Below are positions 816 through 63,561 of a stretch of DNA of 64,000 bases, piece after piece. The notes beneath the pieces are model-generated. The model had not been told where the DNA came from. It worked only from the letters and a program-made list of their open reading frames with translations, and did not search any database. The DNA lies in assembly GCA_028819305.1 (NCBI GenBank), contig JAPPLY010000069.1:1628-65627 (forward strand), in the 5' to 3' direction. The translations under genes and the position numbers were made by a program. Each line of letters begins with the position of its first letter. Positions within the stretch are counted from its first letter, which is position 1. Source of the stretch: Bdellovibrionales bacterium. GTDB lineage: Bacteria; Bdellovibrionota; Bdellovibrionia; Bdellovibrionales; UBA1609.

Positions 816-842
816 TCAGATAGAAGAAACAGGCCCTGTTTG

Positions 843-884
843 ACCCCTGCTCTTCGCGAAGCTTGTCCTCGCAGTCACAGGGGT
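843..884. repeat. hairpin module of the dispersed repeat network (stem ACCCCTG/CAGGGGT around CTTCGCGAAGCTTGTCCTCGC)
   Basis: Inner string CGCGAAGCTTGTCCTCGC recurs at about 15126-15143 and, diverged, at about 58968-58985, 22996-23019 and 39051-39070. Confidence 0.6.
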
Positions 885-905
885 TAAACCGGGGACATTG
901 GTACA

Positions 906-1640
906 TTAAGAAAAAACTTTAGGCTCAAAGCCCTCCTTATTGATAAGATAAGCGCTGTTCCCCGTCGCTTTTATCACAAACAAACCCTGCCTCTCCGCAT
1001 ATTTACTGGCCGATTCATCCGCTCTTAAATAGGCCACAGCTCCATAAATAACCTTACCCCTATAAGATGAAAGACGATCACTAAACTTCTTTAAACCCTC
1101 TAAAAAATACTTAATATGTTGTACCTTTAAAGTGGTTTTTACCTCCACCACCACAGCTTCGTCTCCGTTACCGGCTACAATGTCATACTCGTAACGATCC
1201 TCACCGTGCTCTCTTTTTATATTCATGTAAGTGTGTTTAACATCTATGCCTCTTTCATTTAAAACTTTTACCAGGTCCCCTTCTACAAGGCTTTCCATAA
1301 GTTTGCCCCACTGGGTTTCAAAAAGCTCTTTCGCCTTTTTTAAACCCTCGTTGACCTTTTTATTTTCCGCCGAGAGATCTTTGATTATTTGATCTATTTC
1401 AGCTTTTCGCCTGTCTGCTTCCGCCCATCGCTTAGCCTGTTGCTTCTTTTCTTCAGCTCTTTGCTTCTCTGCTTCCGCCCATCGCTTAGCCTGTTGCCTA
1501 TTTTCCTCAGCCCTTTGCTTCTCTGCTTCCGCCTGCCGCCTCTCTGCTTCTGCCGAAAACCGCTTTAAATTCCTTTGGGTCTCTCTTATAAGACTCCAAA
1601 TCTCATTTGCTGGTGATATTGTGGATTTACTCATTTTCAT
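906..1640 (-). CDS. coiled-coil protein with C-terminal PD-(D/E)XK (restriction-endonuclease-like) motif
   Basis: 244 aa. N-terminal Ala/Glu/Lys/Arg/Gln-rich region carries an 18-aa tandem repeat. C-terminal EYDIVAGNGDEAVVVEVKT fits the D...(D/E)xK nuclease core. Confidence 0.55.
   Translation of the reverse strand: MKMSKSTISPANEIWSLIRETQRNLKRFSAEAERRQAEAEKQRAEENRQQAKRWAEAEKQRAEEKKQQAKRWAEADRRKAEIDQIIKDLSAENKKVNEGLKKAKELFETQWGKLMESLVEGDLVKVLNERGIDVKHTYMNIKREHGEDRYEYDIVAGNGDEAVVVEVKTTLKVQHIKYFLEGLKKFSDRLSSYRGKVIYGAVAYLRADESASKYAERQGLFVIKATGNSAYLINKEGFEPKVFS
1398..1532 (-). repeat. 54-bp (18-aa) tandem repeat inside CDS 906..1640, 2.5 units
   Basis: Protein AEAEKQRAEENRQQAKRW / AEAEKQRAEEKKQQAKRW / AEADRRKAE. 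The DNA string CTCTGCTTCCGCCCATCGCTTAGCCTGTTGC is seen twice. Confidence 0.85.
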
Positions 1641-1698
1641 CTCCTTTCTTTATAATACCATAGTTTTTTAAAAACCAGATATGCAAAATCCATGCCTA

Positions 1699-1998
1699 AA
1701 TCCAAAAGGGTTTTAATTGGCGAACTTATACAAAAAACAACCAGGGGAAGAGATAAACCCAAAGGGTTTTAATTGGTAAACTGAGGAAAATCTATGATAA
1801 ATTTATCTCTTTAAACCCAATGAAAAAATTCAGGAGAGAACAGGCTTTAAAAGCGAGTTAGGCCCTTGACACAGTAGCGACCACCGGTCGCTCTGTGGCA
1901 AAACGCATGTCCGAGCCTTTTAAATCCTGGTTCTCTCCTGAAGAAAACCATAACCCAAAGGGTTTTAATTGGTAAACTGCGATAAAATCTATAAAGAT
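1699..1998. repeat. three direct copies of the T4 core (CCAAAGGGTTTTAATTGGTAAACT) at 1699-1728, 1755-1800 and 1952-1998
   Basis: Copies 2 and 3 are alignable for about 46 bp. Copies 1 and 2 are 57 bp apart, copies 2 and 3 are 197 bp apart, with a T3 hairpin element between them. Confidence 0.8.
1829..1942. mobile_element. T3 palindromic MITE-like element, copy a (114 bp)
   Basis: Terminal inverted repeats TTCAGGAGAGAACAGG / CCTGGTTCTCTCCTGAA. The inner string GCTCTGTGGCAAAACGCATGTCCGAG matches 5781-5806 in reverse complement. Confidence 0.8.
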
Positions 1999-2006
1999 TA
2001 CTCATT

Positions 2007-2062
2007 TAAAATAAAAAAATATAAATCAAATCAAATTGTTGGGACTTTTTCAGAACCTTCTA
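2007..2062. mobile_element. T2 element, right-end fragment
   Basis: AAAATAAAAAAATATAAATCAAATCAAATTGTTGGGACTTTTTCAGAACC matches the right end of 43832-44082. Confidence 0.7.
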
Positions 2063-2180
2063 ATTAGAAGGGATACGGTAAAGTTTTTTTGTAAGCATCT
2101 TCTGTAAGTGAAAATAGCTCTCTTTTTAAGACTTCCCTTATCTTTTGAAGGTGGTTTCTTTTTTGAGGATCAAGAGATAG

Positions 2181-2717
2181 TTAGTTGAGACTCTGAATTT
2201 CCGCTATATAGGGAAGGTGACGAAACTGTTCTTGATAATCCAGACCATATCCCACTAGAAAGGAAGAGGCTTCCACTTCAAAACCAATATAGTCCACCTG
2301 GCATTTTCTTTCTCTTATTTTTTGAGGTTTAGCGATGAGAACAACAGTTGTGAGGGATAAGGGATTATGATTTTTGAGGTGAGATTGTAGGAAGTTCAAA
2401 GTATATCCTTGATCCACAATATCTTCTACCAATAGGATATGTTTTCCTGATATATTTAAAGTGGTATCCATGGTTAATTTTACTTCTTTTGAAGGTTCTT
2501 TTTTTTTTCCGTATCTGGATGTTTCACAAAAATCGCATAATACCCGGCAGGAAAGGGAGCGTATCAGGTCCGAGTAAAAAGCAAAAGCCCCTTTTAAAGT
2601 TCCTATAGCAATCACCTGTTCGTTTTTAAACTTTTTGTTAAGAGATAGGGCTATCTCCTTGATCTTTTTTTGTATCTGTTCTTCTGTAATTAAAATAGTG
2701 GTTTTTATATCCAACAT
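2181..2717 (-). CDS. hpt: hypoxanthine(-guanine) phosphoribosyltransferase
   Basis: 178 aa. PRPP-binding motif LLVEDIVDQGYTL and GYGLDY...R..PYI signature typical of HPRT. Confidence 0.9.
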   Translation of the reverse strand: MLDIKTTILITEEQIQKKIKEIALSLNKKFKNEQVIAIGTLKGAFAFYSDLIRSLSCRVLCDFCETSRYGKKKEPSKEVKLTMDTTLNISGKHILLVEDIVDQGYTLNFLQSHLKNHNPLSLTTVVLIAKPQKIRERKCQVDYIGFEVEASSFLVGYGLDYQEQFRHLPYIAEIQSLN

Positions 2718-2801
2718 AACTCCTTCTTTGTTTATACTGAAAGGGTATTATTCAAATAAGAGATGTATAATATAGTTTATATTTTATCGGTTTGTATAGT
2801 T

Positions 2802-4199: not shown

Positions 4200-4229
4200 A
4201 TTTTCTTTTCCTCCTGAGTTTTTTGATGA

Positions 4230-5624
4230 TTAAACATCCATTATTAAACGGATAGGGTCTTCCACGCATTCTTTGATTTTCAGTAAAAAACCGACAGACT
4301 CTTTTCCATCCACCAGGCGATGATCGTAAGATAAAGCTATATACATCATCGGTTTAATTTGTATTTGTCCATCTACAACAACAGGTCTTTCTTCAATTTT
4401 ATGCATGCCTAAAATCCCGCTTTGGGGAGGGTTTAAAATAGGTGTGGACATAAGGGATCCAAAGACCCCTCCGTTGCTAATGGTAAAAGTCCCTCCCATC
4501 AAATCGTCTGGGCTAATTTTACCATCCCGTGCCTTTTCCGCATAAAAGAGAACGGCTTTTTCCAATTCCGCCATTCCTTTGTGATCGGCTTCGTGAATAA
4601 CGGGAACAACTAAACCTCTATCTGTACTGACAGCTACTCCTATGTGGCAGGAGTGATTATACACCATCTCATCTCCTTCAATAAAGGCGTTCACCCTAGG
4701 GAAAGCTTGTAAAGCATGAATTGTTGCTTTGATAAAAAAACCCATGAAACCAAGTTTAACCTGGTGTCTTTTTTGAAAAGCTTCTTTATATTGAGCACGC
4801 AGATTTATTACTTTGGACATATCAATTTCGTTGAAAGTAGTAAGAGTGGCTGTGCTTTGCTGAGACTTTACAAGTCGTTCAGCAATTCGTTTTCGGATGG
4901 TGCTCATTTTCTTGCGTGTTGTTTTATACTGAGCTTGTTTGAATGTCGTGGCTTCTGTATTCTTATGGGGAAGGAACGGAGTGCGAAGAGTGCCAATTCC
5001 TGACCTGTCCGGTATATTTGATGGAGGTTTTTCGGAAGGGGAAGAGGTGGTTTTGGAAGCCCGGTTTTGGATAAAGGACAGTACATCTCCTTTTGTAATA
5101 CGACCGCCAGGCCCCTGACCTGTAATATGATCTGGATTGAGCTTGTTTTCCGTTATGAGTTTTCTAACAGACGGGGAAAGGTTTTGGTTCATGGAGTGCA
5201 AAGATGATTTTTGAGTTGAGGTATTGGGTTTATCTTTTTTCAGGAAGTTATCTATAAGTGTTTTATCAGAGGGTAATGCTTGTTTTTCCTGATTTTGGGA
5301 TGGAGAATCAAAAGTTGTATGGCTATTTGAGTTAGAAAGAGCTTTTTGAGTTTGTGTTGGTTGTTCTTTTTCTAAAGCAGGAGGTGATATAGAGGTGTCC
5401 AGTTCAGCAATCACTTCACCTACTTTTACATCCTCTCCTTCTTGTTTGAAAATATTGAGCTGACCACTTTGTTCTGCTACCAGATCCATAGAGGCTTTGT
5501 CTGTCTCCATGACCACTAATACTTCATTTTGTTTGACATAATCGCCATTTTTCTTTTGCCATTCACCAATGGTGGCTTCGGTAACAGATTCCCCCACAGA
5601 GGGAACTTTGATTTGTTGTTTCAT
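4230..5624 (-). CDS. sucB: 2-oxoglutarate dehydrogenase E2, dihydrolipoyllysine succinyltransferase
   Basis: 464 aa. Lipoyl domain METDKAS, E3-binding domain SPSVRKL...[11 protein letters not shown], catalytic DHRLVDG, SucB-like C-terminus [10 protein letters not shown]. Long Ser/Thr/Gln-rich linkers. Confidence 0.88.
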
Positions 5625-5691
5625 AGGTTAACTTGCTCCAGTCTTACTTTCCTTTTTTTTGTGTTTATCGTGCGGAGAGGAGCTTATAGAA

Positions 5692-5743
5692 ACCTCAAAA
5701 CATGTCCTCGCGGAAACGGGGATCAAGTAAGATCAGTGGTATA
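5692..5743. repeat. T1 right-half (CCTCAAAACATGTCCTCGCGGAAACGGGGATCAAGTAAGATCAGTGGTATA)
   Basis: Direct imperfect repeat of 5888-5936. Same module as 39046-39087. Confidence 0.7.
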
Positions 5744-5747
5744 AGCT

Positions 5748-5860
5748 CTTCAGAAAAGAATAAGACTCAAAAAGTTCAGACATGCGTTTTGCTACAGAGC
5801 AACTTTCAGCCGCTCTGTAGCAAAGCCGAACTCACTTTTGAGTCTTATTCTTTTCTGAAG
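5748..5860. mobile_element. T3 palindromic MITE-like element, copy b (113 bp)
   Basis: Outer arms CTTCAGAAAAGAATAAGACTCAAAAGT / ACTTTTGAGTCTTATTCTTTTCTGAAG. Inner arms GCTACAGAGC / GCTCTGTAGC. Confidence 0.85.
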
Positions 5861-5887
5861 AATTGTTATCCTCATTTATGTGAAACA

Positions 5888-5936
5888 CCTCAAAACTGTG
5901 TCCGCGTGAAAGCGGAGAATTTAATCGGATCAGATA
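5888..5936. repeat. T1 right-half, second direct copy
   Basis: CCTCAAAACTGTGTCCGCGTGAAAGCGGAGAATTTAATCGGATCAGATA. Confidence 0.65.
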
Positions 5937-7410: not shown

Positions 7411-7578
7411 GCCTCAAAAAAGTCCCTGCAAAGCTGGTTACGCTAATATGATATAACTTATATATGTCTGTATTGTGCTAAAGTTGCGGGAAACGGACCT
7501 TTTTTACTTACTGAAAGCAAAATTGGCATGTTTATAAACTTAAGCCGTTTTTTTAGATTAAAGCCTTTTGAAAATTTT

Positions 7579-8604: not shown

Positions 8605-8641
8605 AGGTATAGATTATATAACACATTGAAGTGCTTTGGAA

Positions 8642-12427: not shown

Positions 12428-12544
12428 TATACTTGACTGATCTTATTACTCCCTGCAGGGAAAAGATTTTGTGGTTTCTTTCAGGCTTCTTCTCCTTCGC
12501 TAGCTAAGCTTTTAAACCTGAAACTTTCAAACACGATCGGTATA
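12428..12544. mobile_element. T1 MITE-like element
   Basis: Left end TATACTTGACTGATCTTATTACTCCC. Core GCTTTTAAACCTGAAACTTTCAAACACGATCGGTATA matches 56180-56221. A T3 terminal fragment TTCAGGAGAGAATAAGAG lies just upstream at about 12389-12420. Confidence 0.75.
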
Positions 12545-14139: not shown

Positions 14140-15039
14140 ATGAAACCTTATCTTTTTGTTCCGGGAAAGTACAAAAAACCTTCTTTAGTATCTCCAGAAG
14201 GTAGGATGACTTACTTTCATAAATCGCATAAAATCAAAGATCCTACGTGTCTTCCTTCTCGTGCTATTTTATGTTTTTGGGATGGCTTGGCTCGGTCTCT
14301 TAAAAAAAGAAAGGACTTTCAAAAAAGTCTTTCTGTTCACGAAACGGGTGGTTTGCATGTTGATTTATACCGAACAGGTCAAGAAAACGCGCCCTCCAAA
14401 CTCCGTTCGTCCTCGGGAAGAAGTTTACAGAAACGACAAAACTCAAACCCGATCAGTATATATAAACCGCAGAGTGCGGCACAGTCTGCATCTGTTGCTG
14501 TAGTGAGCCGTTTTGGGATAGGCGCTCCGGCAGGAGTGGTGTGTTTAGAGAACTTGCGCGCTTATGGAGTAAAGGAGTTTATAAGTGTGGGTCTCGTGGG
14601 CTCTCTAAATTCAAATTTAAAATTAGGTTCCAAAGTGCTAATCAAAAAATCTTTTAGAGGGGAAGGATGTTCTTATCACTATAGAGCCCCCTTTCCTTAT
14701 GTTGAAATGTCAGAGAGTGAAGAGAGGGGTATGTATTTAAAATTGATTAAAGAATTAAAATTAAAACCAGTCGTTAGTTGGACTACAGACGCGCCTTTTA
14801 GAGAAACAAAAGAAGAGGTGCTGTATTTTCAATCTAAAGGCGTAGAGTGTGTGGAAATGGAAGCTTCCGCTTTGATGGCTGTAGGGGAATATTACGGTGT
14901 GTCTGTCTTTTGTCTAGGTGTCGTATCGGATCACCTTTCTCCTGAAGCTTGGACTCCAGGGTTTTTTGATCCTTCTGTTAAAAAGAGTTTGTCTGAACTC
15001 CTTAATAAGATATTGTTTTTATATACTGATTTTGTTTGA
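14140..15039 (+). CDS. nucleoside phosphorylase-family protein (PNP/UDP_1 superfamily) carrying an in-frame T1 insertion
   Basis: RFGIGAPAGVVCLENLRAYGVKEFISVGLVGSL, WTTDAPFRET and VECVEMEASAL fit the phosphorylase superfamily. Start moved to ATG 14140 (MKPYLF). The last 6 codons plus stop lie in a T1 terminus. Confidence 0.55.
   Translation: MKPYLFVPGKYKKPSLVSPEGRMTYFHKSHKIKDPTCLPSRAILCFWDGLARSLKKRKDFQKSLSVHETGGLHVDLYRTGQENAPSKLRSSSGRSLQKRQNSNPISIYKPQSAAQSASVAVVSRFGIGAPAGVVCLENLRAYGVKEFISVGLVGSLNSNLKLGSKVLIKKSFRGEGCSYHYRAPFPYVEMSESEERGMYLKLIKELKLKPVVSWTTDAPFRETKEEVLYFQSKGVECVEMEASALMAVGEYYGVSVFCLGVVSDHLSPEAWTPGFFDPSVKKSLSELLNKILFLYTDFV
14366..14462 (+). mobile_element. T1 MITE-like element inserted in frame within CDS 14140..15039
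   Basis: TATACCGAACAGGTCAAGAAAACGCGC...GACAAAACTCAAACCCGATCAGTATATA. The left 27 nt align with 61836-61862 (TATACCGATCGGGTTTGAAAATCGCGC). Encodes YRTGQENAPSKLRSSSGRSLQKRQNSNPISIY. Confidence 0.7.
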
Positions 15040-15212
15040 ATTTTCCCGATGGCTTGTAGGCGGGAAGGAAGTTGTTGCCTTCTCGCCCCGCGGAAACGGA
15101 AAGCCACTTTGTTGCCTTCTTCTCCCGCGAAGCTTGTCCTCGCGAAAGTATTGTCATTCTCGCGAAAGCGGGAATCTCTTTCTGACAGGAATTTTTAAAC
15201 ACAATTAGTGTA
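15022..15212. mobile_element. composite T1 element with hairpin modules
   Basis: Starts TATACTGATTTTGTTTGAATTTTCCC. Contains GGAAAGCCACTTTGTTGCC, CGCGAAGCTTGTCCTCGCGAAAG and TCTCGCGAAAGCGGGAATC. Ends ATTTTTAAACACAATTAGTGTA. Confidence 0.7.
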
Positions 15213-17542: not shown

Positions 17543-17600
17543 TGTACTGATTTTTTTTGATCCCCGCAAAAGCGCGGAACGAGGATTCCTGATCGGTTTG
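17543..17600. repeat. mini T1 element
   Basis: TGTACTGATTTTTTTTGATCCCCGCAAAAGCGCGGAACGAGGATTCCTGATCGGT. Confidence 0.6.
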
Positions 17601-18888: not shown

Positions 18889-19117
18889 TATTTCCTCTCT
18901 TTTAGATGATTTTAAACTCAACGGATTTGACTTTTCCGTACCTTCAAGGGGTTTTGCCCTTGAAATAAATAGAAAACCAAACGGAAAATTCAAATACAAT
19001 CAGTATGTTTTAAACAACCTTACTTAAATTTTTGTTAAAGGACAATACTTCTTTTAAGAGCAAAACAATAGTCTTGTCAAATCAATTATCCTTTAATATC
19101 TATAAAAAGGGCCATAT

Positions 19118-19261
19118 AGTCGGTTCTGAAAAAGTCACAACAAAGTATCATGCCCGCGAAAGCGGGCATCTAGCCCTGTTTACCTTTCTAGATTCCCATT
19201 TTCACGGGACTGAAAGCTCTTAGAGAGCTTTCAGTTTGGTGGGACTTTTTCTCAACCGACT
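19118..19261. mobile_element. T2 MITE-like element (144 bp)
   Basis: TIRs AGTCGGTTCTGAAAAAG / CTTTTTCTCAACCGACT. Inner perfect palindromes ATGCCCGC-GAAA-GCGGGCAT and ACTGAAAGCTCT-TAGA-GAGCTTTCAGT. Confidence 0.85.
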
Positions 19262-19407
19262 TTTTATTATAAAATTTTTGTAAATTTTCATGTTTTTTAT
19301 TGGAATAAAATCAACCTTTATGAGAAAAAATGAGATTATTTATTAAATTAGGGGGAAAATAGACCCACCCGGGTTGATTTGTACTACACTTATAAGGAAA
19401 AACTGTC

Positions 19408-20793: not shown

Positions 20794-20886
20794 AAATCTT
20801 TAAAAAAGCTCACAACAACAAAAAAAAATCTGGTCCTCATCCCCGTTTCGTGAAGAATCCACCCTTTACAGAAAAGGGAATCACGC

Positions 20887-21129
20887 TAGATCATCGGTTC
20901 TGAAAAAGCCCTAAAAATTTTATTTTATATTTTTGTTATTTTAACGGAAAGCCATTAAAGTGGCTTTCTGTCCCGCGGAAACGAGCATCTAATAAATGAT
21001 AATTAGACCCCCGCTTTTGCGGGGGTGACAACATTCCCAAAAAGCTTGTCTCCGTATAAACAGAGAGATGAATTCATTTTTCCCTCCATTAGCAAAATTT
21101 TGAATAAGAAAACTTTTTCAGAACCGACT
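20887..21129. mobile_element. T2 MITE-like element with nested modules (about 240 bp)
   Basis: Ends ...ATCGGTTCTGAAAAAG and ACTTTTTCAGAACCGACT. Carries hairpins GGAAAGCCATTAAAGTGGCTTTC and CCCCCGCTTTTGCGGGGG. Confidence 0.8.
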
Positions 21130-21152
21130 AAATCGGTTCAGTATATCAAAAT

Positions 21153-22915: not shown

Positions 22916-23050
22916 TATACCGATCGTTTTTGAAAATTTTAGGTTTAAAAGTTGGTTACGGAAAGCCACTACAGTGGCTGCCCGTTTGAAAGTTACGAAA
23001 AAGCTTTTCCTCGCGAAAGTAGGGAATGGGGATAATATCCACTGGGTATA
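22916..23050. mobile_element. T1 MITE-like element (135 bp)
   Basis: TATACCGATCGTTTTTGAAAATTTTAGGTTTAAAAG...GGAAAGCCACTACAGTGGCTG...CCTCGCGAAAGTAGGG...CCACTGGGTATA. Confidence 0.8.
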
Positions 23051-25258: not shown

Positions 25259-25356
25259 ACATATATGACTGATCTTGTTTGATATCTGTGTCCAAAAAGG
25301 AAATATTTTGTGGTTTTTCACATAAAGCGAGTTATTTCTATAGGAGAGATTTATAA

Positions 25357-35765: not shown

Positions 35766-35795
35766 TTCACGGGGATCAAAACAAGATCAGTATAT
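35766..35795. repeat. T1 terminus variant (CTTCACGGGGATCAAAACAAGATCAGTATA)
   Basis: Nearly identical to 53866-53898 (GGAAACGGGGATAAAACAAGATCAGTATA) and related to 5711-5743. Confidence 0.7.
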
Positions 35796-35803
35796 TCCTA
35801 TCT

Positions 35804-35901
35804 AGTCGGTTCTGAAAAAGCTTTTTCTTGTTAATATTACTCCCTCAAAATAACAAAAATATAAATAAAATTAAATTGTTAGGACTTTTTCAGAATCGAC
35901 T
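35804..35901. mobile_element. T2 MITE-like element (98 bp, minimal form)
   Basis: AGTCGGTTCTGAAAAAG...CTTTTTCAGAATCGACT. Its last bases overlap the TAG stop of exbB. Confidence 0.85.
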
Positions 35902-36439
35902 ATCTATAATCCATCCACCTTGGTTGTTGAATTTGCCTTAAATAAAATTGCACACGGTTTTCCAATACACGACTAACAAAAATACCGGACAAAGCTCCTA
36001 CCATACCGGCCATGGTGGGAATAGTGGCCATGGAAATACCACTCGCCATCAGACGCGCATTACCGGTCCCTACCTCTGCCATAACTTCAAACACAGCCAC
36101 CATCCCTGTAACCGTGCCCAATAAACCCATAAGAGGACAAAGGGCCACCAAAACTTTAATAGCAGGTATATTTTTATTCAATAATAACCTTAAACCCGAT
36201 AAGTCTGCTTTCCACATTCGCAAATATAAAGAAGAAGTTACAGAGTTAGCGGGAGGGCGTTTTTGCCATTTATTTAATACTAATTGAGTATCCTTTTTGA
36301 AGCTGAAGCGAAAATACCAAAATCTTTCTATAATGTAAAACCATAGAGCTAGGAGGAGAAAAAAGATCAAATACAAAACTCCACCACCTTTATCCATAAA
36401 GTTTTGTATCACTTCAAAAAAATAATAAATATAAGTCAT
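35900..36439 (-). CDS. exbB: MotA/TolQ/ExbB proton-channel protein
   Basis: 179 aa. LMGLLGTVTGMVAVFEVMA...MASGISMATIPTMAGMVGAL. Confidence 0.85.
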   Translation of the reverse strand: MTYIYYFFEVIQNFMDKGGGVLYLIFFLLLALWFYIIERFWYFRFSFKKDTQLVLNKWQKRPPANSVTSSLYLRMWKADLSGLRLLLNKNIPAIKVLVALCPLMGLLGTVTGMVAVFEVMAEVGTGNARLMASGISMATIPTMAGMVGALSGIFVSRVLENRVQFYLRQIQQPRWMDYR

Positions 36440-38967: not shown

Positions 38968-39087
38968 TATACCCATAGGGTATATTATTTTTCCGTAACT
39001 TCTTGGCTCTTTCCTCCGGGGCAGCTAAGCCTTTAACTCCGACATTTTCAAACCTTGTCCTCGCGAAAGCGGGGAACGACCGGTATA
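38968..39087. mobile_element. T1 MITE-like element (core plus CCTCGCGAAAGCGGGG module)
   Basis: TATACCCATAGGGTATATTATTTTTCCGTAACTTC...CATTTTCAAACCTTGTCCTCGCGAAAGCGGGGAACGACCGGTATA. Lies 17 bp upstream of the DUF3450 start. Confidence 0.85.
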
Positions 39088-43636: not shown

Positions 43637-43831
43637 TTTTTATTACACACTCAATTTATACCACTTTAGTTTAGGTTTGAGATCTCATAGGGAAAGAACA
43701 AAACACTTATTTTTCATAGTTATAACAATAAATTCACTACCTTCTGATTAACTTAAGTGATCTTGAAACTTCCCTCATTTTTATTAATCCTTTAAGAGTT
43801 CATTATGAGTTCTTAAGAAAATATTCTATTT

Positions 43832-44082
43832 AATCGGTTCTGAAAAAGTTTTCTTATTATTCAAAATTTTACAAGTTTAATATATTTTACTCAGGAAAAC
43901 CGTTTGCCGGTTGAGTTCCCAAGGACCTTGACTTTCTACCAAGAAAAACAAGGTCCGTTCCGAGAGGCAAAGCTCCGTATAAAGGCAAATCTGTTTTCCT
44001 GAAGGACACATTTACAGGATGACATCTAAAATAACAAAAATATAAATAAAATCAAATTGTTGGGACTTTTTCAGAACTGACT
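43832..44082. mobile_element. T2 MITE-like element with nested palindromes (251 bp)
   Basis: AATCGGTTCTGAAAAAG...GGGACTTTTTCAGAACTGACT. Inner TCAGGAAAAC...GTTTTCCTGA and CCAAGGACCTTG...CAAGGTCC. Confidence 0.85.
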
Positions 44083-44256
44083 ATTTATATTTCTTATCCA
44101 TTTTTGTCCAGACTAAAGCTGTGTTTTATCATTTAAAGCCGTGCTTATCCTTCATAATAGCGGTATCATTTTTAAGAAGAGAAACGGTACAATATTTACT
44201 CACGGCTATAAATCGGAACTTAATATATAGAGAACAGAAGTCACAAAGGGAAAAAT

Positions 44257-45267
44257 ATGAAATATTTAATTTTATTACTTTCTTTTGTCCTTGCTCTTTC
44301 TTCCGGATGTGGTGGAGGTGAACATCATTCCACAGAAGATCTAAATGACGGAGCTTTAGCAGGAAGCCCTACTGATGATGGTTCTTCTAGCCAACCGGGA
44401 AGCTCATTGACAGATGACCCTCCTATACCATCTACACCACAGACACCCAATAACCTATGTACTAAAACTTGTGTGACAGATGCCGAATGTGGAGAAAAAT
44501 ATAACACTTGCCTAAAACCTCATGCTGGAGAGCCGACAAAGACATATACAGATATATGTACAAACAGTCAGGCTTCAAAAGTCACCTTAGTTGTTAATGA
44601 ATGGGATGCTCCTTCCGGGCAAAATAAATTACTTTGTGATTTTATTGAAAATGACAGGATTTTATATAAATTTGCGACTGTCCAAAAAGAAGCGTGTCGT
44701 AAGGATATGGAAGTAAGAAAAATGGAATTAGCCCAGGAAGGCTATAGTTGTGGAACACCAGCACCGATATCCATACAACCGGCAGTATCAGCACCAACAG
44801 AAACAATAACAGCAGATACAGAGAGGCTTGCTCCGCCAGGAAGGTCAGCAGCAACAACAGTAAGACATATGGGGGAAACTTCTCCGTTACCGACAAGTTC
44901 ACCACCGATAACAACCAGAGCGGAGGGTGATCTATCAGCGGAAAAAATAGAAGAAACAGATATTTGCGATAGACCATGTGGAGATACAGTACAGTGCAGA
45001 GCGAAACACAAAAACTGCTTAAGACCTAAAGTTGGAGATCCTGTAACAACAGAAGAAATAGTATGTACGAAAGCTGGCGAAAAAAATATCTCTTTTAAAT
45101 TGAATGAATGGGACAGTTCTGGTCAAGGAAAAACATTGTTATGTGATCTTATTGAAGATGGGGAATTACTCCGATTTGCGACCGTCCAAAAAAACAACTG
45201 TCAACTTCGTCTTAAAGAAAGACAAGCGGAATTGATAAATGAAGGTTATGACTGTCAGCCTCAATAG
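44257..45267 (+). CDS. Cys-rich lipoprotein with two copies of an uncharacterised domain of about 100 aa
   Basis: 336 aa, lipobox LSSGC. Repeat A: CTKTCVTDAECGEKYNTCLKPHAGEP...LVVNEWDAPSGQNKLLCDFIEN...FATVQKEAC...EGYSC. Repeat B: CDRPCGDTVQCRAKHKNCLRPKVGDP...FKLNEWDSSGQGKTLLCDLIED...FATVQKNNC...EGYDC. Confidence 0.7.
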   Translation: MKYLILLLSFVLALSSGCGGGEHHSTEDLNDGALAGSPTDDGSSSQPGSSLTDDPPIPSTPQTPNNLCTKTCVTDAECGEKYNTCLKPHAGEPTKTYTDICTNSQASKVTLVVNEWDAPSGQNKLLCDFIENDRILYKFATVQKEACRKDMEVRKMELAQEGYSCGTPAPISIQPAVSAPTETITADTERLAPPGRSAATTVRHMGETSPLPTSSPPITTRAEGDLSAEKIEETDICDRPCGDTVQCRAKHKNCLRPKVGDPVTTEEIVCTKAGEKNISFKLNEWDSSGQGKTLLCDLIEDGELLRFATVQKNNCQLRLKERQAELINEGYDCQPQ

Positions 45268-45375
45268 TCAGTCCTGAAAAAGCTTTCTTATTCAAAAATT
45301 TTCAAGTTTAATATATTTTATTCAGGAAAACAGCTTGCCGGTGAAGGGTCCAAGGTCCAAGATCCTTAGCTTCAT
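45266..45375. mobile_element. T2 element, left part only
   Basis: AGTCAGTCCTGAAAAAGCTTTCTTATTCAAAAATTTTCAAGTTTAATATATTTTATTCAGGAAAACAGCTTGCCGG aligns with the left 110 bp of 43832-44082. Begins inside the TAG stop of the lipoprotein gene. Confidence 0.8.
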
Positions 45376-47124: not shown

Positions 47125-48423
47125 TTAATAAAATAAGTATTTTTTCATTTGTTCCTGCCAGAGTTTTTCATCAGCAGATAATTTTTCTTCCAATTCCATG
47201 ATAGAAGCACTTTGATCTGCAATCCAGTGTCTTAAAAAATCATCTCCTGATAAAATATCAATAGGTGGTTTTTCATACTCATACTCATAAGGGGGCGGAG
47301 CTATCCAATCAAAGTCTGGATGGTGTTTTTTAAGGCACTTAAGGAATAAACTAACCATTCGATAAGGATGGAAATCCTGTTCTTTGTAAAAAGGATCTTG
47401 AGCATAAATCCGAATGGCCGAGCAGATTTGATTTTGAAATTTGTCAAAGACCGGCTGGAAAAACTCTTCTCTTAATACACAACCCGTTAGCCACTGAGGA
47501 GCTATCTTAGCCATAGATTCTAAAATATTTTTCGTATTCATTTCAGGAAAGCCAAAAGCTTTTAAAGGAAAAACTGTTCCGCGTGCTTCAGATACTTTTG
47601 TTCCTTCTAATAAAACGGTGCCACTATAGCAACGGGCACATTCTTCATCTACCATATTAGGGCTGGGGAGCACCCAAGGTAAATCGTCTGGCCAGGCCTC
47701 TTTTTCCGGTTGATAACCTTTCATTTTTATTATTTCCAATTTCATATTCAATTTTTTTAAAGAGCAGTACCAATTTGCCGCTTCCGCTAAGGTTAGTCCG
47801 TGGCGGATAGGGAGAGGGGCTGCCCCTACAAAGCTTATAAACTTTTTATTTAGTATAGAACCTTCCACCTTTCTTCCGGCAGGATTAGGGCGATCCAGTA
47901 TCCATACCTCCTTACCGGCAGAGGAGCAATCCTCCAGGACATAAAAAAGGGTTGTTAAATAGGTATATACACGACAACCTACATCCTGTAAGTCCACTAT
48001 TAACACATCAAAATGAGAGAGCATTTCTTTTGTAAGCCTTCTGGTTTTACTGGAGTAAAGGCTGAAAATAGGGTAAGGGTTGATATTATTAGTGCTGGTG
48101 TAACTCTTTGAAGGTTTATTCAAATAAAACCCTTTGGATTTATCCTTTCTTATGGTTGTTCCCCTTGGGGATTCTCCCCAAGGAGACCCTGTTAGCTTAT
48201 CTTCTGTTGTAATCATATTAGCTTGTCTAGTGCTATTAAAACCATGTTGAGGACCAATAAGACAGTTTATTTTTAATGGTGTGTGGGAGGGGATGAGATC
48301 AAGAGAGTGTTGTAGATTTTGTGTTACAGAAGCTTGATGACCTAAGAAAGCAAGGCGGCTTTTTTCCAGACGACCTTGCCACTTTTTTTCTTTAATAAAA
48401 GATTCAATACCTAGTTCAAACAT
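47125..48423 (-). CDS. DUF1343-family protein (NamZ-like exo-muramidase family) carrying an in-frame repeat-element insertion
   Basis: 432 aa. PIFSLYSSKTRRLTKEMLSHFDVLIVDLQDVGCRVYTYLTTLFYVLE and ILDRPNPAGRKVEGSIL match the DUF1343 core. Confidence 0.8.
   Translation of the reverse strand: MFELGIESFIKEKKWQGRLEKSRLAFLGHQASVTQNLQHSLDLIPSHTPLKINCLIGPQHGFNSTRQANMITTEDKLTGSPWGESPRGTTIRKDKSKGFYLNKPSKSYTSTNNINPYPIFSLYSSKTRRLTKEMLSHFDVLIVDLQDVGCRVYTYLTTLFYVLEDCSSAGKEVWILDRPNPAGRKVEGSILNKKFISFVGAAPLPIRHGLTLAEAANWYCSLKKLNMKLEIIKMKGYQPEKEAWPDDLPWVLPSPNMVDEECARCYSGTVLLEGTKVSEARGTVFPLKAFGFPEMNTKNILESMAKIAPQWLTGCVLREEFFQPVFDKFQNQICSAIRIYAQDPFYKEQDFHPYRMVSLFLKCLKKHHPDFDWIAPPPYEYEYEKPPIDILSGDDFLRHWIADQSASIMELEEKLSADEKLWQEQMKKYLFY
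48073..48186 (-). mobile_element. composite palindromic element (T1-like hairpin plus T4 core) inserted in frame in the DUF1343 gene
   Basis: Coding strand CCTTGGGGA-GAA-TCCCCAAGG GGAACAACCATAA...AAATCCAAAGGGTTTTATTTGAATAAACC. Encodes SPWGESPRGTTIRKDKSKGFYLNKPSKSYTSTNNINPY between the conserved TG and PIFSLY. Confidence 0.7.
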
Positions 48424-53862: not shown

Positions 53863-53865
53863 CTG

Positions 53866-53898
53866 TTCTGTGGAAACGGGGATAAAACAAGATCAGTA
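53866..53898. repeat. T1 terminus variant
   Basis: CTGTGGAAACGGGGATAAAACAAGATCAGTATA. Confidence 0.7.
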
Positions 53899-53921
53899 TA
53901 AAAAATATAGGACTTACATTT

Positions 53922-54608: not shown

Positions 54609-54610
54609 AT

Positions 54611-55981: not shown

Positions 55982-56122
55982 ACTTTTCTCCTTTTCATTT
56001 ATCTATAACAATAGAAATTTTATTCGTCTTTTATGGTCAAGTTATGAAAACGGAAAGAGGTCACAACCGCCATCATATATAAATTAAGGTAAAAGGAAGA
56101 TTTCTAAAAAGCAACATTTTTT

Positions 56123-56221
56123 TATACCCAGTGGGCATTATTTTTTCATAACTTCCCGGCCTTTCTCCCTTATTAGACAAGCTTTTAAACCTGAAATTTT
56201 CAAACATAATCGGGTTATATA
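56123..56221. mobile_element. T1 MITE-like element, core form (99 bp)
   Basis: TATACCCAGTGGGCATTATTTTTTCATAACTTCCCGGCC...GCTTTTAAACCTGAAATTTTCAAACATAATCGGGTTATATA. Ends 2 bp from the permease stop. Confidence 0.85.
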
Positions 56222-56223
56222 TT

Positions 56224-58071
56224 TTAGTGAATGGTAGTGATAGGCATTTCAATTTCACTGGCAATATACTTTCGTATTTCATAAGAATGATCAGGGTCTC
56301 TTCCAATGCCAAAATAAATAGCTTTAGGGGTTACGGATTCTTTTAATGTTCTAAGTCCTTCTAATAAATTTCCTGGCAGAATTTTAACTGTTAAAATAAT
56401 ATCTTTGTTTTTGTAAATGGGGGCAATTTGTTGTGATACCACTCTTTGTAGCACTTCGTAAAATCCGTGATTAGAAGCAGATTCTTCTTCTTCCGCATAA
56501 AATAAAATCAGCTCAAAAGGCCCTGGGTTTTTTTCAGATATAAAGTTTAATGCTTTAGAAATGAGACGCCGTAGCCGATGCTCTCCAATACATAAAACAT
56601 GTTGTGGCAGATTTTCAGGGAGTTCATCTACATTATGAAGAAAGTGCCCCAACCCTAAACGCAGGTCCGTGTGTGTTTCCAGACGATTTTCCAATATACC
56701 CCAACGATAGTAAGCCATAAGGACAACTGTAATTCCTATAAGAAAAGTCAGCATAAACAGCACATCCGAGTTGGCATGGGTGACTAATAAAAAAATGGCA
56801 AAACTGAGGATTAAACTTGTTAATAAAGGATAGAGGGGAATTTTTATTCCATTATTAAACTTAATAAGAGTTTGGGAAAGATATTGTGTTGGGGTGGATT
56901 TTCTAAAACCTTTGTTTCTCATTAAAATAGCACCTACGGCAAAGCTGACCATAACACCTAAAAAAGCTACTTCATATACTTTAGCGGCAATATCCACCTC
57001 TCCCGCTACCATAGACGACATAAACATAACAATAGCCATGAAGCTTAAGGAAATGACAGGGTATCCTTCCAATGATGGGATAATATGGGATAGTCTTTTT
57101 AAACAAATTTGAGGTAAGTTTCCATTTTTGGCCATAGTAGTAGCCAGTCCAATAAAACCAATAAAAGCGGTATTGGTGGCGGCAAACAAAGTAAGAGTGG
57201 CATCTATTACAATGATAGTAAGTAAAAATCGTCCTCCTATTTTTTCCGAGAGGCCGGATAAGAGGTGATGAATATGGCTATCCACTTCTTCCGGTGTCAG
57301 AATAGTCAAGCACATGATAGAGATAACAGGTGCTGTTATAGAAACCATAACAATAACAACTTTATATAGTTTTCGAACGGTGAGTAATGTAGGTTGTTCT
57401 AATGTTTCTACAATTTGAGCCGCGGACTCAAAACCAGTAATACCTAAAAAAGCGGCCGCAAATCCATAAGCTAAAGTGGCTCCTGTTAGAGTTTGAGGGT
57501 AGGCGGAAAAGTCACCGAATTTAGAAAAATCAATTTCTGAAAAATGGAACAGGATATAACCTAAGCCCCAAATGGAGATAAGAATCAAAAGCCCAAAATG
57601 GCATATAGCAATGCCAGTTACTATTTTTGCCGGTTCTTTTATCCCTTTAATGTTTAAGAGGCTAAACAAAATCACAGGTATAAATGAGATGGTAACCACA
57701 GTGGATTGATCCAGCCCCCCCTCAAAAAGAGAGGATAGATAAAATGCGCCAGAAAGGGAGCTGACAGCAGCGGTGGCTAAATAAGATACAAAAGTAAGAG
57801 CACCGGCAAAAACGGCAGCCTGCTTACCCACACTTCTTAAAATCATAGAGTAAGCTCCTCCATTATAAGGGCTCATAGCCAAACCTTCTTCATAAGTGCG
57901 TTTGAATATCCACATAGCCAGACAGGCTGTGAGCACAAACAGAGGAGCGAAATAGCCAACTATGGGGTATAAGATTCCTGTGCCGTAAAATACGGAGGTG
58001 CCAATATCAGCGCCCACGACTCCTGCAGCAATTAACCAATTTAATTCAGATTTTTGTTTATCCGGTTCCAA
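56224..58071 (-). CDS. APC-superfamily amino acid/polyamine permease with cytoplasmic C-terminal domain
   Basis: 615 aa, TTG start. About 12 TM segments, then a soluble tail of about 160 aa. Confidence 0.6.
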   Translation of the reverse strand: MEPDKQKSELNWLIAAGVVGADIGTSVFYGTGILYPIVGYFAPLFVLTACLAMWIFKRTYEEGLAMSPYNGGAYSMILRSVGKQAAVFAGALTFVSYLATAAVSSLSGAFYLSSLFEGGLDQSTVVTISFIPVILFSLLNIKGIKEPAKIVTGIAICHFGLLILISIWGLGYILFHFSEIDFSKFGDFSAYPQTLTGATLAYGFAAAFLGITGFESAAQIVETLEQPTLLTVRKLYKVVIVMVSITAPVISIMCLTILTPEEVDSHIHHLLSGLSEKIGGRFLLTIIVIDATLTLFAATNTAFIGFIGLATTMAKNGNLPQICLKRLSHIIPSLEGYPVISLSFMAIVMFMSSMVAGEVDIAAKVYEVAFLGVMVSFAVGAILMRNKGFRKSTPTQYLSQTLIKFNNGIKIPLYPLLTSLILSFAIFLLVTHANSDVLFMLTFLIGITVVLMAYYRWGILENRLETHTDLRLGLGHFLHNVDELPENLPQHVLCIGEHRLRRLISKALNFISEKNPGPFELILFYAEEEESASNHGFYEVLQRVVSQQIAPIYKNKDIILTVKILPGNLLEGLRTLKESVTPKAIYFGIGRDPDHSYEIRKYIASEIEMPITTIH

Positions 58072-58098
58072 ATGTTCCCGCCTCTGTAGTTGAGGTTA

Positions 58099-58290
58099 AT
58101 GTTCCCCGTTTTTTATATCCAATGGATATGATACCTGTTTCCACGGGGACAAGCTTTATCGTCACTTTCCGATCTTTTACCCCAGGTTAGCCAAGCCTTT
58201 AAGCTTGAAATTTTCCCATTCCTCGGAAGCGGAAAGCCACTTTGATGGCTTTCCGCTTCGCGAAAGTGGGGAGCGGGGAACGATCGGTAT
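58099..58290. mobile_element. stacked T1-type elements and hairpin modules
   Basis: GTTCCCCGT...ACGGGGAC. GCCTTTAAGCTTGAAATTTTCCC. GGAAAGCCACTTTGATGGCTTTCC. CGCGAAAGTGGGGAGCGGGGAACGATCGGTAT. Confidence 0.75.
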
Positions 58291-58330
58291 CACTCTAAAA
58301 ATAAATTTTGTTGAGTCTAAAAAAAACCTT

Positions 58331-58813: not shown

Positions 58814-58821
58814 TAGCGATA

Positions 58822-58924
58822 CTCTTCCGTTTAGTTTGAAATATGGGAAGAAGCCTCTTTAGAATAGTCGCTTTGTGTCAAAACGCATATCTAAACCTTT
58901 TGTTTCTTATTCGCCCTGGAAGAG
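58822..58924. mobile_element. T3 element, copy c (one arm degenerate)
   Basis: Terminal CTCTTCC / GGAAGAG. GTCGCTTTGTGTCAAAACGCATATCTAAACCTTTTGTTTCTTATTC aligns with 1885-1935. Lies 9 bp upstream of the EVE start. Confidence 0.65.
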
Positions 58925-58961
58925 ACTCATAACTTTATTCATATAAAAAATACAAAATTCT

Positions 58962-59022
58962 GTTCCTCGCGAAGTTTGTCCCCGCAAAAGCGAGGAGTGG
59001 GGATCACACCCGATCGGTATAT
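58962..59022. repeat. T1 right-half
   Basis: GTTCCTCGCGAAGTTTGTCCCCGCAAAAGCGAGGAGTGGGGATCACACCCGATCGGTATATA. Confidence 0.7.
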
Positions 59023-59106
59023 ATAAATATATTTCCTATGACTGACAACTAGAATCTGAAAAATCAAGCCATGAATACAGAATGTACTTTTATGAAGTCA
59101 TAGTAT

Positions 59107-59169
59107 GGCTATTTTGTCCTGAAAGTCAAAATAGACTTGACTATTTTGTAGTATAGTCTAAAATAGACA
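59107..59169. promoter_or_regulatory. array of four alternating 8-mers (CTATTTTG / CAAAATAG) directly upstream of the ATPase gene; candidate operator
   Basis: GCTATTTTGTC (59108), GTCAAAATAGAC (59125), GACTATTTTGTAG (59139), GTCTAAAATAGAC (59157). The last one ends 1 nt before the ATG. Confidence 0.35.
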
Positions 59170-59170
59170 G

Positions 59171-60319: not shown

Positions 60320-60360
60320 AGCTCTTGCCTAGGGTAAAAATCTAGTGGATATTAGGGATT

Positions 60361-61767: not shown

Positions 61768-61835
61768 ACTTCATTTTGAACTACTGAAAAATACTCGCTA
61801 AAGAAAAAAACCTCTCTCTACAGGAAGTTTTTTCT

Positions 61836-61972
61836 TATACCGATCGGGTTTGAAAATCGCGCTTTATTTGTTTTGTCTTCTTCCAGAAGACAAAACTCCC
61901 ACGAAGCCTGCCCTCGCGAAAGCAGGGGCGGGAATCCAGCCTAATCCTCCATTTTCAAACCAGAGGGGTATA
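61836..61972. mobile_element. T1 MITE-like element (137 bp)
   Basis: TATACCGATCGGGTTTGAAAATCGCGC...GTCTTCTTCCAGAAGAC...CCCTCGCGAAAGCAGGGG...ATTTTCAAACCAGAGGGGTATA. Confidence 0.8.
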
Positions 61973-61979
61973 AGTCCGA

Positions 61980-62252
61980 TTAATTCTGTTGGTTTAATTG
62001 CTGTTGGCACTCTTTCAAAGCAGTGCTTTGCTGGTACTCATTACGAAGGGCACTCCCCATATTGTCTAGGTCTGCCCGGTTCAATGTTTCTCTTATTGCT
62101 CCTATTTCTCTTACTAATTTGTCTAATGATATAATCGCGCTATTTAATTTGTTTCTCGTTGCCATTATATCGTTTCCTAAATCACTCTGCCCATAAGTTA
62201 AAGAAGGGTTAATTAGTAAAATAAGACCTGTAATCAATAATATTTTTTTCAT
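61980..62252 (-). CDS. small secreted coiled-coil protein, hypothetical
   Basis: 90 aa. SD AAGGAG. Signal peptide MKKILLITGLILLINPSLTYG. Confidence 0.55.
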   Translation of the reverse strand: MKKILLITGLILLINPSLTYGQSDLGNDIMATRNKLNSAIISLDKLVREIGAIRETLNRADLDNMGSALRNEYQQSTALKECQQQLNQQN

Positions 62253-62382
62253 ATTTCATCTCCTTGGTTATTAACCAAACAATTGGATTAGGGAACAAAA
62301 AACATAAGAAAAAAAATTAGAAAGTAAAAAAGGAGTTTGATAAAATAGTAATTTTATTTAATTTTGTATAGAATTTAGTTGG

Positions 62383-63180
62383 TTGTCTTACTTTTGCCTG
62401 TCGCGGCCCTCGGGAGGGATTAAACAAATCTTGACAATTGTTGAGTTATCTCTTTTTCTTCTGGGTGTTTCTATAGGTCTTTCTTCCTCTTTTCTAGGGG
62501 TGGGAGGGGGATTGATTATGGTGCCTTTGTTACCCTTGTTTCTGCCGTTAAGTGCTGTGGAAACGGTGGCTACCTCTTTGTTTGTAGTCATGGTTACTGT
62601 GTTTGTAAATAGCCTTTCTTTTGTAAGAAAGGGTCTCGTGGATTGGTCGTATTTTTTTTACATTGGTTTTGGATCTGTCAGTTGGGCTGTTCTTTTATCT
62701 TATATTAGTGTGCAGGGAATGGATGTTATTTTCCGACTGGGCTTGGTTTTAGCCTTGCTCTTCATTTTATTAAATCCTCTTTCTTACTTTAATTTTAAGC
62801 CTAGTAGAGTGAAGAGCTTTTTTCTGGGAAGCTGTGGTGGCTTTTTAACTGGTATTTCCGGAATGGGGAGTTCTATTTTCAGCCCCATCTTCTTTGAGTT
62901 TAAATGGTTGGAGAAAAAGCAGATTGTGCCGACGGTTAATGCGGTTATGTTTGTGACTACTATAAGCGTATTGACTATCTTGTTTTTAGGACATCCAAAA
63001 CACTTCGGTCTTGTACATTTATATGCGTCTCTATTTATTTTAGCCGGAGCATTCTTAAGTTCTTTTGTCGGACGATGCTTAAATCTGGGGCCTTATGAAA
63101 AATACCGCCGAGTTTTATTAAAAGTGCTTGTTTTATGTCTTCTTATAAAAGTTCTCTTTGAGTTGGTTTTTAAGATTTGA
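62383..63180 (+). CDS. TauE/SafE-family anion exporter (DUF81)
   Basis: 265 aa, polytopic. FLGVGGGLIMVPLL. TTG start is uncertain. Confidence 0.65.
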   Translation: MSYFCLSRPSGGIKQILTIVELSLFLLGVSIGLSSSFLGVGGGLIMVPLLPLFLPLSAVETVATSLFVVMVTVFVNSLSFVRKGLVDWSYFFYIGFGSVSWAVLLSYISVQGMDVIFRLGLVLALLFILLNPLSYFNFKPSRVKSFFLGSCGGFLTGISGMGSSIFSPIFFEFKWLEKKQIVPTVNAVMFVTTISVLTILFLGHPKHFGLVHLYASLFILAGAFLSSFVGRCLNLGPYEKYRRVLLKVLVLCLLIKVLFELVFKI

Positions 63181-63183
63181 ATT

Positions 63184-63335
63184 GTTTGTACTGATCTGAT
63201 TTAAAAAATCCGATAAGGAACTTGCTTAGAATTGAGAACACATATTCTTGCGCAGGCAGGGATCGAACCTTTTTTGTCTTTTTAATCAACATCAGATACT
63301 CATGTTCTCGCACAGACAGAGATCGAACCCTTCGG
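63184..63335. repeat. degenerate T1-like element containing two direct repeats of about 32 bp
   Basis: Starts TGTACTGATCTGATTT. Contains CTTGCGCAGGCAGGGATCGAACC and CTCGCACAGACAGAGATCGAACCCTTCGGTAT. Confidence 0.5.
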
Positions 63336-63561
63336 TATTCAGGTTCTATGCGCGCATATACGGTGATTTAGTATATCTATGCGCTTTTAAGTCGTTGATA
63401 GGCAATTAAACGTCAATTCAGTTGTTCGGTGTGTGTATAAAGGCGTGCTGGACTTAGGTTTTGTGTAGTTTTTTGAAGTAGAAGAGGGATACAATAAAAA
63501 ACAAAACTAAGAATCAGAGGTGCCTTAGGCTCTTCCTCATTAGAATATATTGTGGTAGGTA

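Follow-up and report, generated by a model that had tools for sequence, protein, structure and literature searches.

T1, a superfamily of miniature TA-inserting elements of probable IS630 origin in a small Bdellovibrionales genome

T1 in the window and in the genome

The stretch analysed here (the window) comprises 64,000 nucleotides (C85:1628-65627) of the draft genome of an uncultured bacterium of the Bdellovibrionales (G000; 1.98 Mb, 36% G+C, 88 contigs, 92.9% complete). Its gene content is that of an ordinary chromosomal region and includes genes for a secretin, a TonB-dependent receptor, ExbB/ExbD, purE/purK, adenylosuccinate synthetase, an E2/E3 2-oxoacid dehydrogenase pair, and a Cu/Zn superoxide dismutase. 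Neither tRNA genes nor Rfam matches were found within the window, and a Pfam scan of 39 open reading frames (ORFs) of the window revealed no transposase, as the original prediction had also noted. Taxonomic placement by sequence gave no resolution: EF-Tu had matches of 71-78% in many phyla, and a 1,268-aa ORF had no match in the genome-contig collection. That prediction concerned a family of short repeats, T1, which recurs in the spacers of the window and is the subject of the present analysis. For comparison, we used the closest genome in our collection (G012), which is nearly closed and has a main contig of 2.08 Mb. It shares ~86% identity with G000 in genes and is syntenic across the window.

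T1 was found to be a superfamily of at least three subfamilies of MITEs (small transposable elements with inverted repeats), named T1a, T1b, and T1c, with a common terminal inverted repeat (TIR). In each of the 16 intervals previously listed lies a copy of T1, a solo right end of T1b, or a hairpin-module fragment, and further copies were detected between them. The loci are as follows (window positions, with strand where assigned):

843-884: fragment of nested hairpin modules (CGCGAAGC-TTGTCCTCGC...), T1 terminus absent
4925-5016, minus: T1b, 92 nt, both termini, in frame in the E2 gene; newly detected
5692-5743, plus: solo T1b right end with one hairpin module
5888-5936, plus: second T1b right end, degenerate, with module, across a 114-nt palindrome from 5692-5743
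12428-12544, plus: T1a with intact right terminus and degenerate left part (profile positions 9-96 at 12455-12544)
14366-14460, plus: full 95-nt T1b between TAs, a net in-frame insertion of 93 nt in a phosphorylase-family gene
15022-15212: T1 of 191 nt, both termini, several hairpin modules, at the end of the phosphorylase-family gene
17543-17600: mini form, hairpin module and degenerate terminus (TGTACTGATTTTTTTTGA)
22916-23050, minus: T1a, 135 nt, both termini, GGAAAGCCAC hairpin and GNRA module
25262-25345: degenerate T1 end (TGACTGATCTTGTTTGAT...) in a spacer, a stretch of ~94 nt without counterpart in G012; newly detected
29630-29709, minus: incomplete T1a (profile positions 11-96) where the secretin ORF starts; newly detected
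35766-35795, plus: solo T1b right end (…GGGGATCAAAACAAGATCAGTATA)
38968-39087, plus: T1a, 120 nt, GNRA hairpin module ahead of the right terminus
53866-53900, plus: solo T1b right end with a partial module
56123-56221, plus: near-complete T1a, the seed of the profile
58099-58290, plus: T1a with left-side module, GGAAAGCCAC hairpin, and GNRA module
58962-59022, plus: nested hairpin modules, then a solo right end
61836-61972: T1 of 137 nt (95 + 2 x 21), both termini and module
63184-63335: degenerate, a T1-type terminus (GTACTGATCTGATTT...) and after it two repeats of the GATCGAACC type

Solo termini that had likewise been overlooked lie at 2733, 37822, 42273, 46659, and 46938. With 29 termini at 22 loci in 64 kb, the earlier estimate of about one copy per 4 kb was right or slightly low. 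The forms described as halves are in part solo T1b right ends, with or without a module, whereas some (843, 17543, and 63184) are only module fragments or degenerate termini. The abundance of the family had, by contrast, been overstated: the listed T1 DNA amounts to 1,565 bp, including 1,236 bp of the ~10 kb of non-coding DNA in the window. T1 thus represents 12% of the non-coding DNA (up to ~19% when the overlooked copies are counted) and not most of it; even all small-repeat families combined reach ~25%.

The recurring strings are strongly over-represented throughout G000. This holds for the terminus strings TATACC(C/G)A, GATCGGTATA, GATCAGTATA, and TATACTGATC, and counts exceeded expectation 8- to 80-fold for the strings originally proposed (e.g. 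53 observed versus 4.5 expected for TATACCGATC, 65 versus 7.7 for TATACTGATC, 24 versus 0.3 for CCTCGCGAAAG, and 34 versus 1.6 for GGAAAGCCAC). A 20-nt weight matrix of the terminus with a cut-off of at least 12 bits detected ~830 sites in G000; an equally large Markov-1 random genome gave 21, and none of these reached 16 bits. An iterated nhmmer search seeded with window positions 56115-56230 converged on 111 T1a matches with a 96-nt consensus (TTATACCCATGGGGTATTATTTTTCCGTAACTTTTCGGTTTTTTCCTCTTGGCAGCCAAGCCTTTAAATCCGGAATTTTCAAACACGATCGGTATA). De novo clustering of all short repeats yielded 776 regions (78 kb, 4% of the genome) and revealed that T1 termini also bound two further bodies, i.e. 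T1b (the 14366 type) and T1c. Together, the three profiles gave 347 non-overlapping matches genome-wide, totalling 34 kb. T1 DNA was estimated at ~39 kb, or 2% of G000, and at ~6% of non-coding DNA based on rough gene calls.

The TIR spans ~14-20 nt (TATACYGAWCNGGT) and reads, from the target inwards, TA followed by TACYGAWCNGGT... The consensus of both ends is TATACCGATCCGGTTTGAAA, the ends being inverted repeats. Information peaks at positions 1-6, 10, and 12-14, with TATAC, C10, and GGT12-14 as the strongest parts. Clean full-length copies of all three subfamilies measure 95 nt, including the TA at each end, and the longest paired forms reach ~200 nt; elements of this size have no capacity to encode a transposase. 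Lengths of the 177 elements with paired termini peaked at 95 nt (27 elements), 116 nt (14), 137 nt (8), and 158-161 nt. The length minus 2 was divisible by three in 110 of the 177 (59 expected), and the net insert length is quantised as 93 nt plus steps of 21 nt. In T1a variants of ~111-120 nt, a second hairpin (GGAAAGCCAC…GTGGCTTTCC) takes the place of part of the core. Copies are 74-93% identical to their own consensus (mean 83%); the median nearest-neighbour identity is 85%, and no pair exceeds 96%.

Target sites and the related insertion sequence

For 34 full-length T1 loci, the flanks were joined by a single TA and searched in G012 and three further members of the genus. At least 12 of the 34 loci were spanned without the element in G012. 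Seven of these were of exactly the predicted length or, in the case of 14366, deviated only by an unrelated 3-nt indel. All five exact-length G012 sites that were read showed flank-TA-flank, where G000 has flank-TA-[TACC…GGTA]-TA-flank; T1 therefore duplicates its TA target. Window position 14366 gave the same empty-site picture, with TG for TA (one substitution), and a T1c copy nested in T1a splits the consensus TTTAAAT into TTTA-element-TAAAT. The three other genus members (G002, G008, and G013) were likewise empty at several of the sites, which identifies these cases as insertions in the lineage of G000 and not deletions. T1 flanks are A/T-rich, with T at position -1 in 64%. At least nine of the 34 loci were filled in G012 too, their flanks being split by ~90-160 nt. 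The copy at 22916-23050 also has a G012 ortholog, partly decayed and with one terminus lost. Older T1 insertions are thus common to both genomes and are decaying.

A gene product able to act on such ends was sought in several ways. Pfam searches for PF13358 (DDE_3, IS630) and for PF01797 (Y1/RAYT, i.e. tyrosine transposases associated with repetitive extragenic palindromes) found no match in G000 or G012, whereas control genomes scored, and a protein search detected no IS630 transposase in either genome. Pairs of T1 termini 0.6-4 kb apart in G000 included none with matching extended ends and a long ORF. A self-megablast of G000 for long repeats returned diverged paralogous gene families only. 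No DDE transposase was found among the multi-copy ORF families and contig ends of G000, which include an AAA ATPase family, tyrosine integrases, Rpn/YhgA-like genes, and an Hjc-like PD-(D/E)XK family.

Among 101 surveyed genomes of the same family, 16 carry DDE_3 genes, and two of these genomes hold elements with T1-like ends. In G055, from a third genus, an element end (TATACCGATCCGGTTTGAGTTTTCAGG) lies 22 nt past the stop codon of a DDE_3 gene that encodes a 295-aa transposase with HTH_33 and DDE_3 domains and a truncated N-terminus. G102, from a sister genus, has eight DDE_3 copies, with an intact relative (66% identity) of the G055 protein among them. Alignment of three of the eight identical copies in G102 defined this insertion sequence (IS) as a TA-flanked element of 1,141 bp with ends TATACTGGTCTTGTTTGAATTTTCAGG… and …AAATCAAACCAGTATA and a transposase of 338-341 aa. 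When scored with the T1 terminus matrix, the G102 and G055 ends reached 20.6, 15.0, and 24.9 bits, and right ends of T1b share 25-26 of 31 nt with the end of the G102 IS. A transposase with matching TIRs, which had been suggested as a genome-wide search target, was not found in G000, and neither was a RAYT gene; the matching IS belongs to other genera. When the G102 transposase was compared with G000 by tblastn, the matches were fragments of rve-type (PYRPQTNGKVERFW) and not of IS630. Given the negative PF13358, protein, and tblastn searches, T1 is an orphan.

Another candidate partner, a multi-copy IS630 of G006 (same genus as G000), was rejected: its ends (…TATCGGAATA…) scored -22 and -25 bits on the T1 matrix. 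G006 also holds, at G006:C1:1287155-1287306, tandem T1a-like units of ~94 nt whose end is TTTTCAAACAAGATCGGTATA. The rve-type (IS481/IS3-like) fragments of G000, at C20:31194-31355, C76:6557-6688, and C30:1720-1995, are the sole DDE remnants seen in that genome, and two of them adjoin T1 copies.

A strict terminus pattern, TATACYGRTCNKGTTTGA, was counted in the 101 family genomes, with the reversed pattern as control. Counts were 29 in G000, 30 in G012, 83 in G006, 36 in G055, 80 in G105, 110 in G107, and 9 each in G069 and G102. The pattern was not found in 90 of the 101 genomes, and the reversed control gave zero everywhere.

Insertions in genes, the 21-nt module and neighbouring repeats

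A T1 copy was counted as read-through when its frame stayed open for 120 nt or more in both directions. This applied to 109 of the 347 matches (31%) and to 35 of the 96 clean full-length copies, compared with 57% of random 95-nt windows. Genes are therefore poorer in T1 than random positions would be, but by no means free of it. Of the six frames, two (T1a), four (T1b), and three (T1c) are without stop codons in the respective consensus. The strand with three open frames carries 18 of the 20 read-through T1b copies, and the other strand carries two. T1 was rarest in convergent (3'-3') spacers (13 of 199, versus 46 of 211 divergent spacers).

Four copies illustrate the outcome. (i) The copy at 14366 adds 31 residues (YRTGQENAPSKLRSSSGRSLQKRQNSNPISI) to a PNP/UDP-phosphorylase-family protein, whose G012 ortholog reads straight through the site without insert (…LHVDL directly followed by YKQKS…). 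(ii) The copy at 4925-5016 is a net in-frame insertion of 90 nt in the E2 2-oxoacid dehydrogenase acyltransferase (ORF 4230-5624, minus strand). The inserted residues (~203-233) form part of the linker between the E3-binding (149-182) and catalytic (234-461) domains, and in G012 the sequence runs across this site without the element. (iii) A T1c copy lies in an HD-domain, RNase Y-like gene (C6:17916), and its site is empty in three relatives. (iv) At 15022, the T1 terminus provides the last codons and the stop of the phosphorylase-family gene (…LYTDFV*), in G000 and G012 alike. We also noted that the N-terminal Pfam match of NamZ (DUF1343; ORF 47125-48423, minus strand) is split into two stretches around window positions 48073-48186, which is consistent with the in-frame insertion of a repeat.

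The steps of 21 nt in T1 length are accounted for by a GC-rich module of 21 nt (TTGTCCYCGYGAAARCGGGGA) with a stem of 6-7 GC base pairs closed by a GNRA loop (GAAA or GGAA). About 255 copies with at most five substitutions from the consensus were detected in G000, compared with one in a random genome. Variation consists mainly of transitions, and paired changes in the stem are in excess (TA at pair 9:14 in 47 copies, with ~16 expected). Within T1, the module occupies two hot spots, ~18 nt inside either terminus, in mirror orientation. Modules also nest in the GAAA loops of other modules, giving rise to 'Russian-doll' forms of 137, 158, and 200 nt. The description of the family as modular and mosaic thus holds as such, but has two separate causes: at least three subfamilies that use one TIR, and nesting of the module at the two hot spots.

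It is possible, though we regard it as doubtful, that the module is itself an ultra-small mobile unit that inserts without a known transposase in A-rich sites, among them the GAAA loops of other copies. Equally tentatively, each insertion would then add exactly seven codons, so that the module and its T1 carriers could grow inside genes with the frame kept. Copy number, loop-in-loop nesting, and the 21-nt steps may support such mobility, as may near-identical module copies in genus members without T1 and one orthologous T1b that is longer in G012 by two modules (42 nt), which lie precisely at the right-hand hot spot. Independent mobility is opposed by a comparison of the flanks of 16 stand-alone modules, which gave no clean case of presence and absence (all were either conserved in G012 or false positives), and gene conversion between T1 copies could be an alternative source of the 42-nt difference.

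Other repeats are interspersed with T1. A second MITE-like family, T2, has inverted termini (TAGTCGGTTCTGAAAAAG) and lies at window positions 19111-19267, 20885-21136, 35797-35908, 43825-44093, 45259-45358, and 2007-2068. Its string GGTTCTGAAAAAG occurs 63 times in G000 (0.08 expected), and T2 holds nested inserts, including the same hairpin modules as T1. A third family is a near-perfect palindrome of ~114 nt (…CAGGAGAGAATAGG…GCGAGTTCGG…GACACAGTAGCGACC…) at 1829-1942 and 5748-5860 (genome community 4, 66 members). The latter copy is bracketed by two T1b right-end halves, which form direct repeats of ~50 nt. A multi-copy gene family (906-1640, minus strand; upstream 1699-1998) has ~10 paralogs genome-wide, with a weak match to Hjc-like PD-(D/E)XK nucleases and an N-terminal coiled-coil repeat; direct repeats of CCCAAAGGGTTTTAATTGG, of which G000 has 31, precede the gene. 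Just upstream of exbD, G012 carries ~1,056 bp (G012:C5:1310951-1312008) without counterpart in G000 (window 35290/35302). Contig ends of G000 are mostly repeats as well: 155 of 176 match other ends. Many fall in Rpn/YhgA-like genes with EGRQEGRQ C-terminal repeats (seven paralogs), and others consist of a tandem GAGGCAAAGCCCCGTA repeat (e.g. C56 right, C1 left, C22 left, and C29 left; C87:9220-10296). These genes and the tandem repeat explain the breaks in the assembly.

Origin of T1

Taken together, T1 is very probably an old, orphaned superfamily of MITEs derived from an IS630-type IS, which inserted at TA and often in frame. Matching ends and the TA duplication suggest that an IS630 relative mobilised it. 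The designation as MITE put forward in the original prediction is borne out by the TIRs, the duplicated TA (5/5 exact empty sites), the presence/absence polymorphism, and the existence of an autonomous relative from the IS630 family whose ends are the same. Age and orphan state are indicated by the lack of such a transposase in G000 and G012 and by the divergence of copies from their consensus. On the simplest reading, an IS630-family element would have spread patchily among genera and spawned bursts of MITEs, and would later have been lost from the lineage of G000 and G012, leaving T1 orphaned. Judging from the divergence of its copies, T1 is probably now immobile and decaying. Insertions in genes would survive only where the frame was kept and no stop was brought in, which would account for net lengths in multiples of three and for genic T1b lying mostly on the strand with three open frames.

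Several observations weigh against this interpretation. G000 itself is without a transposase able to move T1. As a draft of 88 contigs that end mostly in repeats, it could lack a collapsed multi-copy IS; in answer to this, the 2.08-Mb main contig of G012 is also without an IS630 transposase. The bias towards multiples of three could in part be inherited from master copies and not reflect selection. The left end of T1a (TATACCCnnnGGGTAT), a hairpin, resembles the end of the IS over only ~11 nt. At window positions 12428 and 56123, G012 has different T1-end debris and a different insert of ~160 nt, respectively, and neither site gives a clean pair of filled and empty states.

The best-surviving alternative is that T1 is still active, moved by an IS630 copy of the organism that the draft assembly fails to include. 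Incompleteness (92.9%, 88 contigs), the 155 matching contig ends, and the at least 12 tested insertions specific to G000 relative to G012 would fit this explanation. It is nevertheless improbable: the G102 transposase found only rve-type fragments, the DDE_3 search was negative, the nearly closed G012 is equally devoid of an IS630 transposase, and no two T1 copies exceed 96% identity, with a median of 85% between nearest neighbours.

Still less probable is that a host function at the level of RNA or DNA structure (terminators, mRNA stability, or protein binding) is the main reason for the retention of T1 and its hairpins, with mobility being incidental. The C-GAAA-G loop of GNRA type and the compensatory stem changes of the module argue for such a function, as does the folding of T1c and of one T1b strand, which is better than that of shuffled sequences (z = -2.8 and -3.0). 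Better folding is, however, expected of palindromes that bear TIRs, and for T1a folding did not surpass that of shuffled sequences (z = -0.8 and -1.3). Moreover, the window holds no Rfam match, T1 is least frequent in convergent spacers, no T-run follows the hairpins, and copies decay freely, losing even their termini. A primary role of T1 as terminator or structured RNA is therefore unlikely. The T1b consensus also displayed a strand asymmetry in folding (-29.7 kcal/mol, z = -3.0, versus -11.2 kcal/mol, z = +0.9, on the other strand), which points to many G-T/G-U-compatible pairs on one strand only.

The likeness to repetitive extragenic palindromic (REP) sequences and bacterial interspersed mosaic elements (BIMEs), i.e. 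a mosaic of palindromic units spread by a RAYT of the IS200/IS605 type (Y1), rests on the modular architecture, the GC-rich hairpins, and the many partial copies, but it hardly deserves credence in view of the lack of PF01797 matches in G000 and G012 with positive controls, the TIRs and 2-bp TA duplication that Y1 elements do not make, the absence of GTAG/CGTC heads, and the 31% of copies inside open frames.

Among known systems, T1 resembles bacterial MITEs derived from the IS630 family that duplicate TA, e.g. the Correia elements (Correia repeat enclosed elements, CREE) of Neisseria and the repeat units of pneumococcus (RUP). They are small (~100-200 nt) and non-coding, with TIRs that begin at TA. 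RUP has been linked to IS630. MITEs of this type also have in common with T1 the TA duplication, high copy number, insertion polymorphism, and elements nested in elements. T1 differs from them in its TIR and body sequences, in a unit length tuned to 93 nt net, and in that its partner IS is found in other genera only and not in the host genome. TIRs with a terminal TA characterise most bacterial MITEs (PMC5896051), and the Correia elements have been reviewed (PMC10969869). Correia elements also have promoter, IHF, and RNase III features.

Rickettsia palindromic elements (RPEs) are, like T1, short palindromic repeats in a small A/T-rich genome. They are not known to have a TIR, target-site duplication, or transposase partner, whereas the TIRs of T1 are clear and are accompanied by a duplicated TA and a relative of IS630 type. 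Many RPEs lie in frame in unrelated housekeeping genes, which stay open (PMC10969869). T1 is thus comparable by its effect on proteins and is not a member of that family, homology between the two being unlikely given their different TIR and duplication properties. QMITE1/2 of Coxiella burnetii, also a reduced genome, overlap gene ends and sometimes lie in frame in ORFs (PMC5896051), similar to the T1 copy at 15022 with its contribution of last codons and stop. They differ in sequence and host lineage, and the nested 21-nt module has not been described for them. REPs and BIMEs of enterobacteria and pseudomonads likewise combine GC-rich hairpin units into mosaics within spacers. REPs owe their mobility to RAYTs, have GTAG/CGTC heads (PMC3733652), and are extragenic; T1 has neither RAYT nor such heads and is not confined to extragenic DNA.

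T1 is hence a known kind of element, an IS630-derived MITE, in a new lineage, with in-frame insertions similar to those of RPEs; its features of interest are the codon-phase design of its lengths and the nested hairpin module. It has colonised the small (~2 Mb), gene-dense genome of an uncultured bacterium at about one element per 5 kb, a third of the copies being embedded in reading frames, among them those of housekeeping enzymes. In the annotation of this lineage, it accounts for unusual starts and ends of genes and for insertions within them. The patchy distribution among genera, combined with the lost transposase, would amount to a dated record of transposon invasion and extinction. Because ends, target, duplication, and parent IS can all be identified, the tolerance or use of 31-residue inserts by proteins becomes testable in this lineage.

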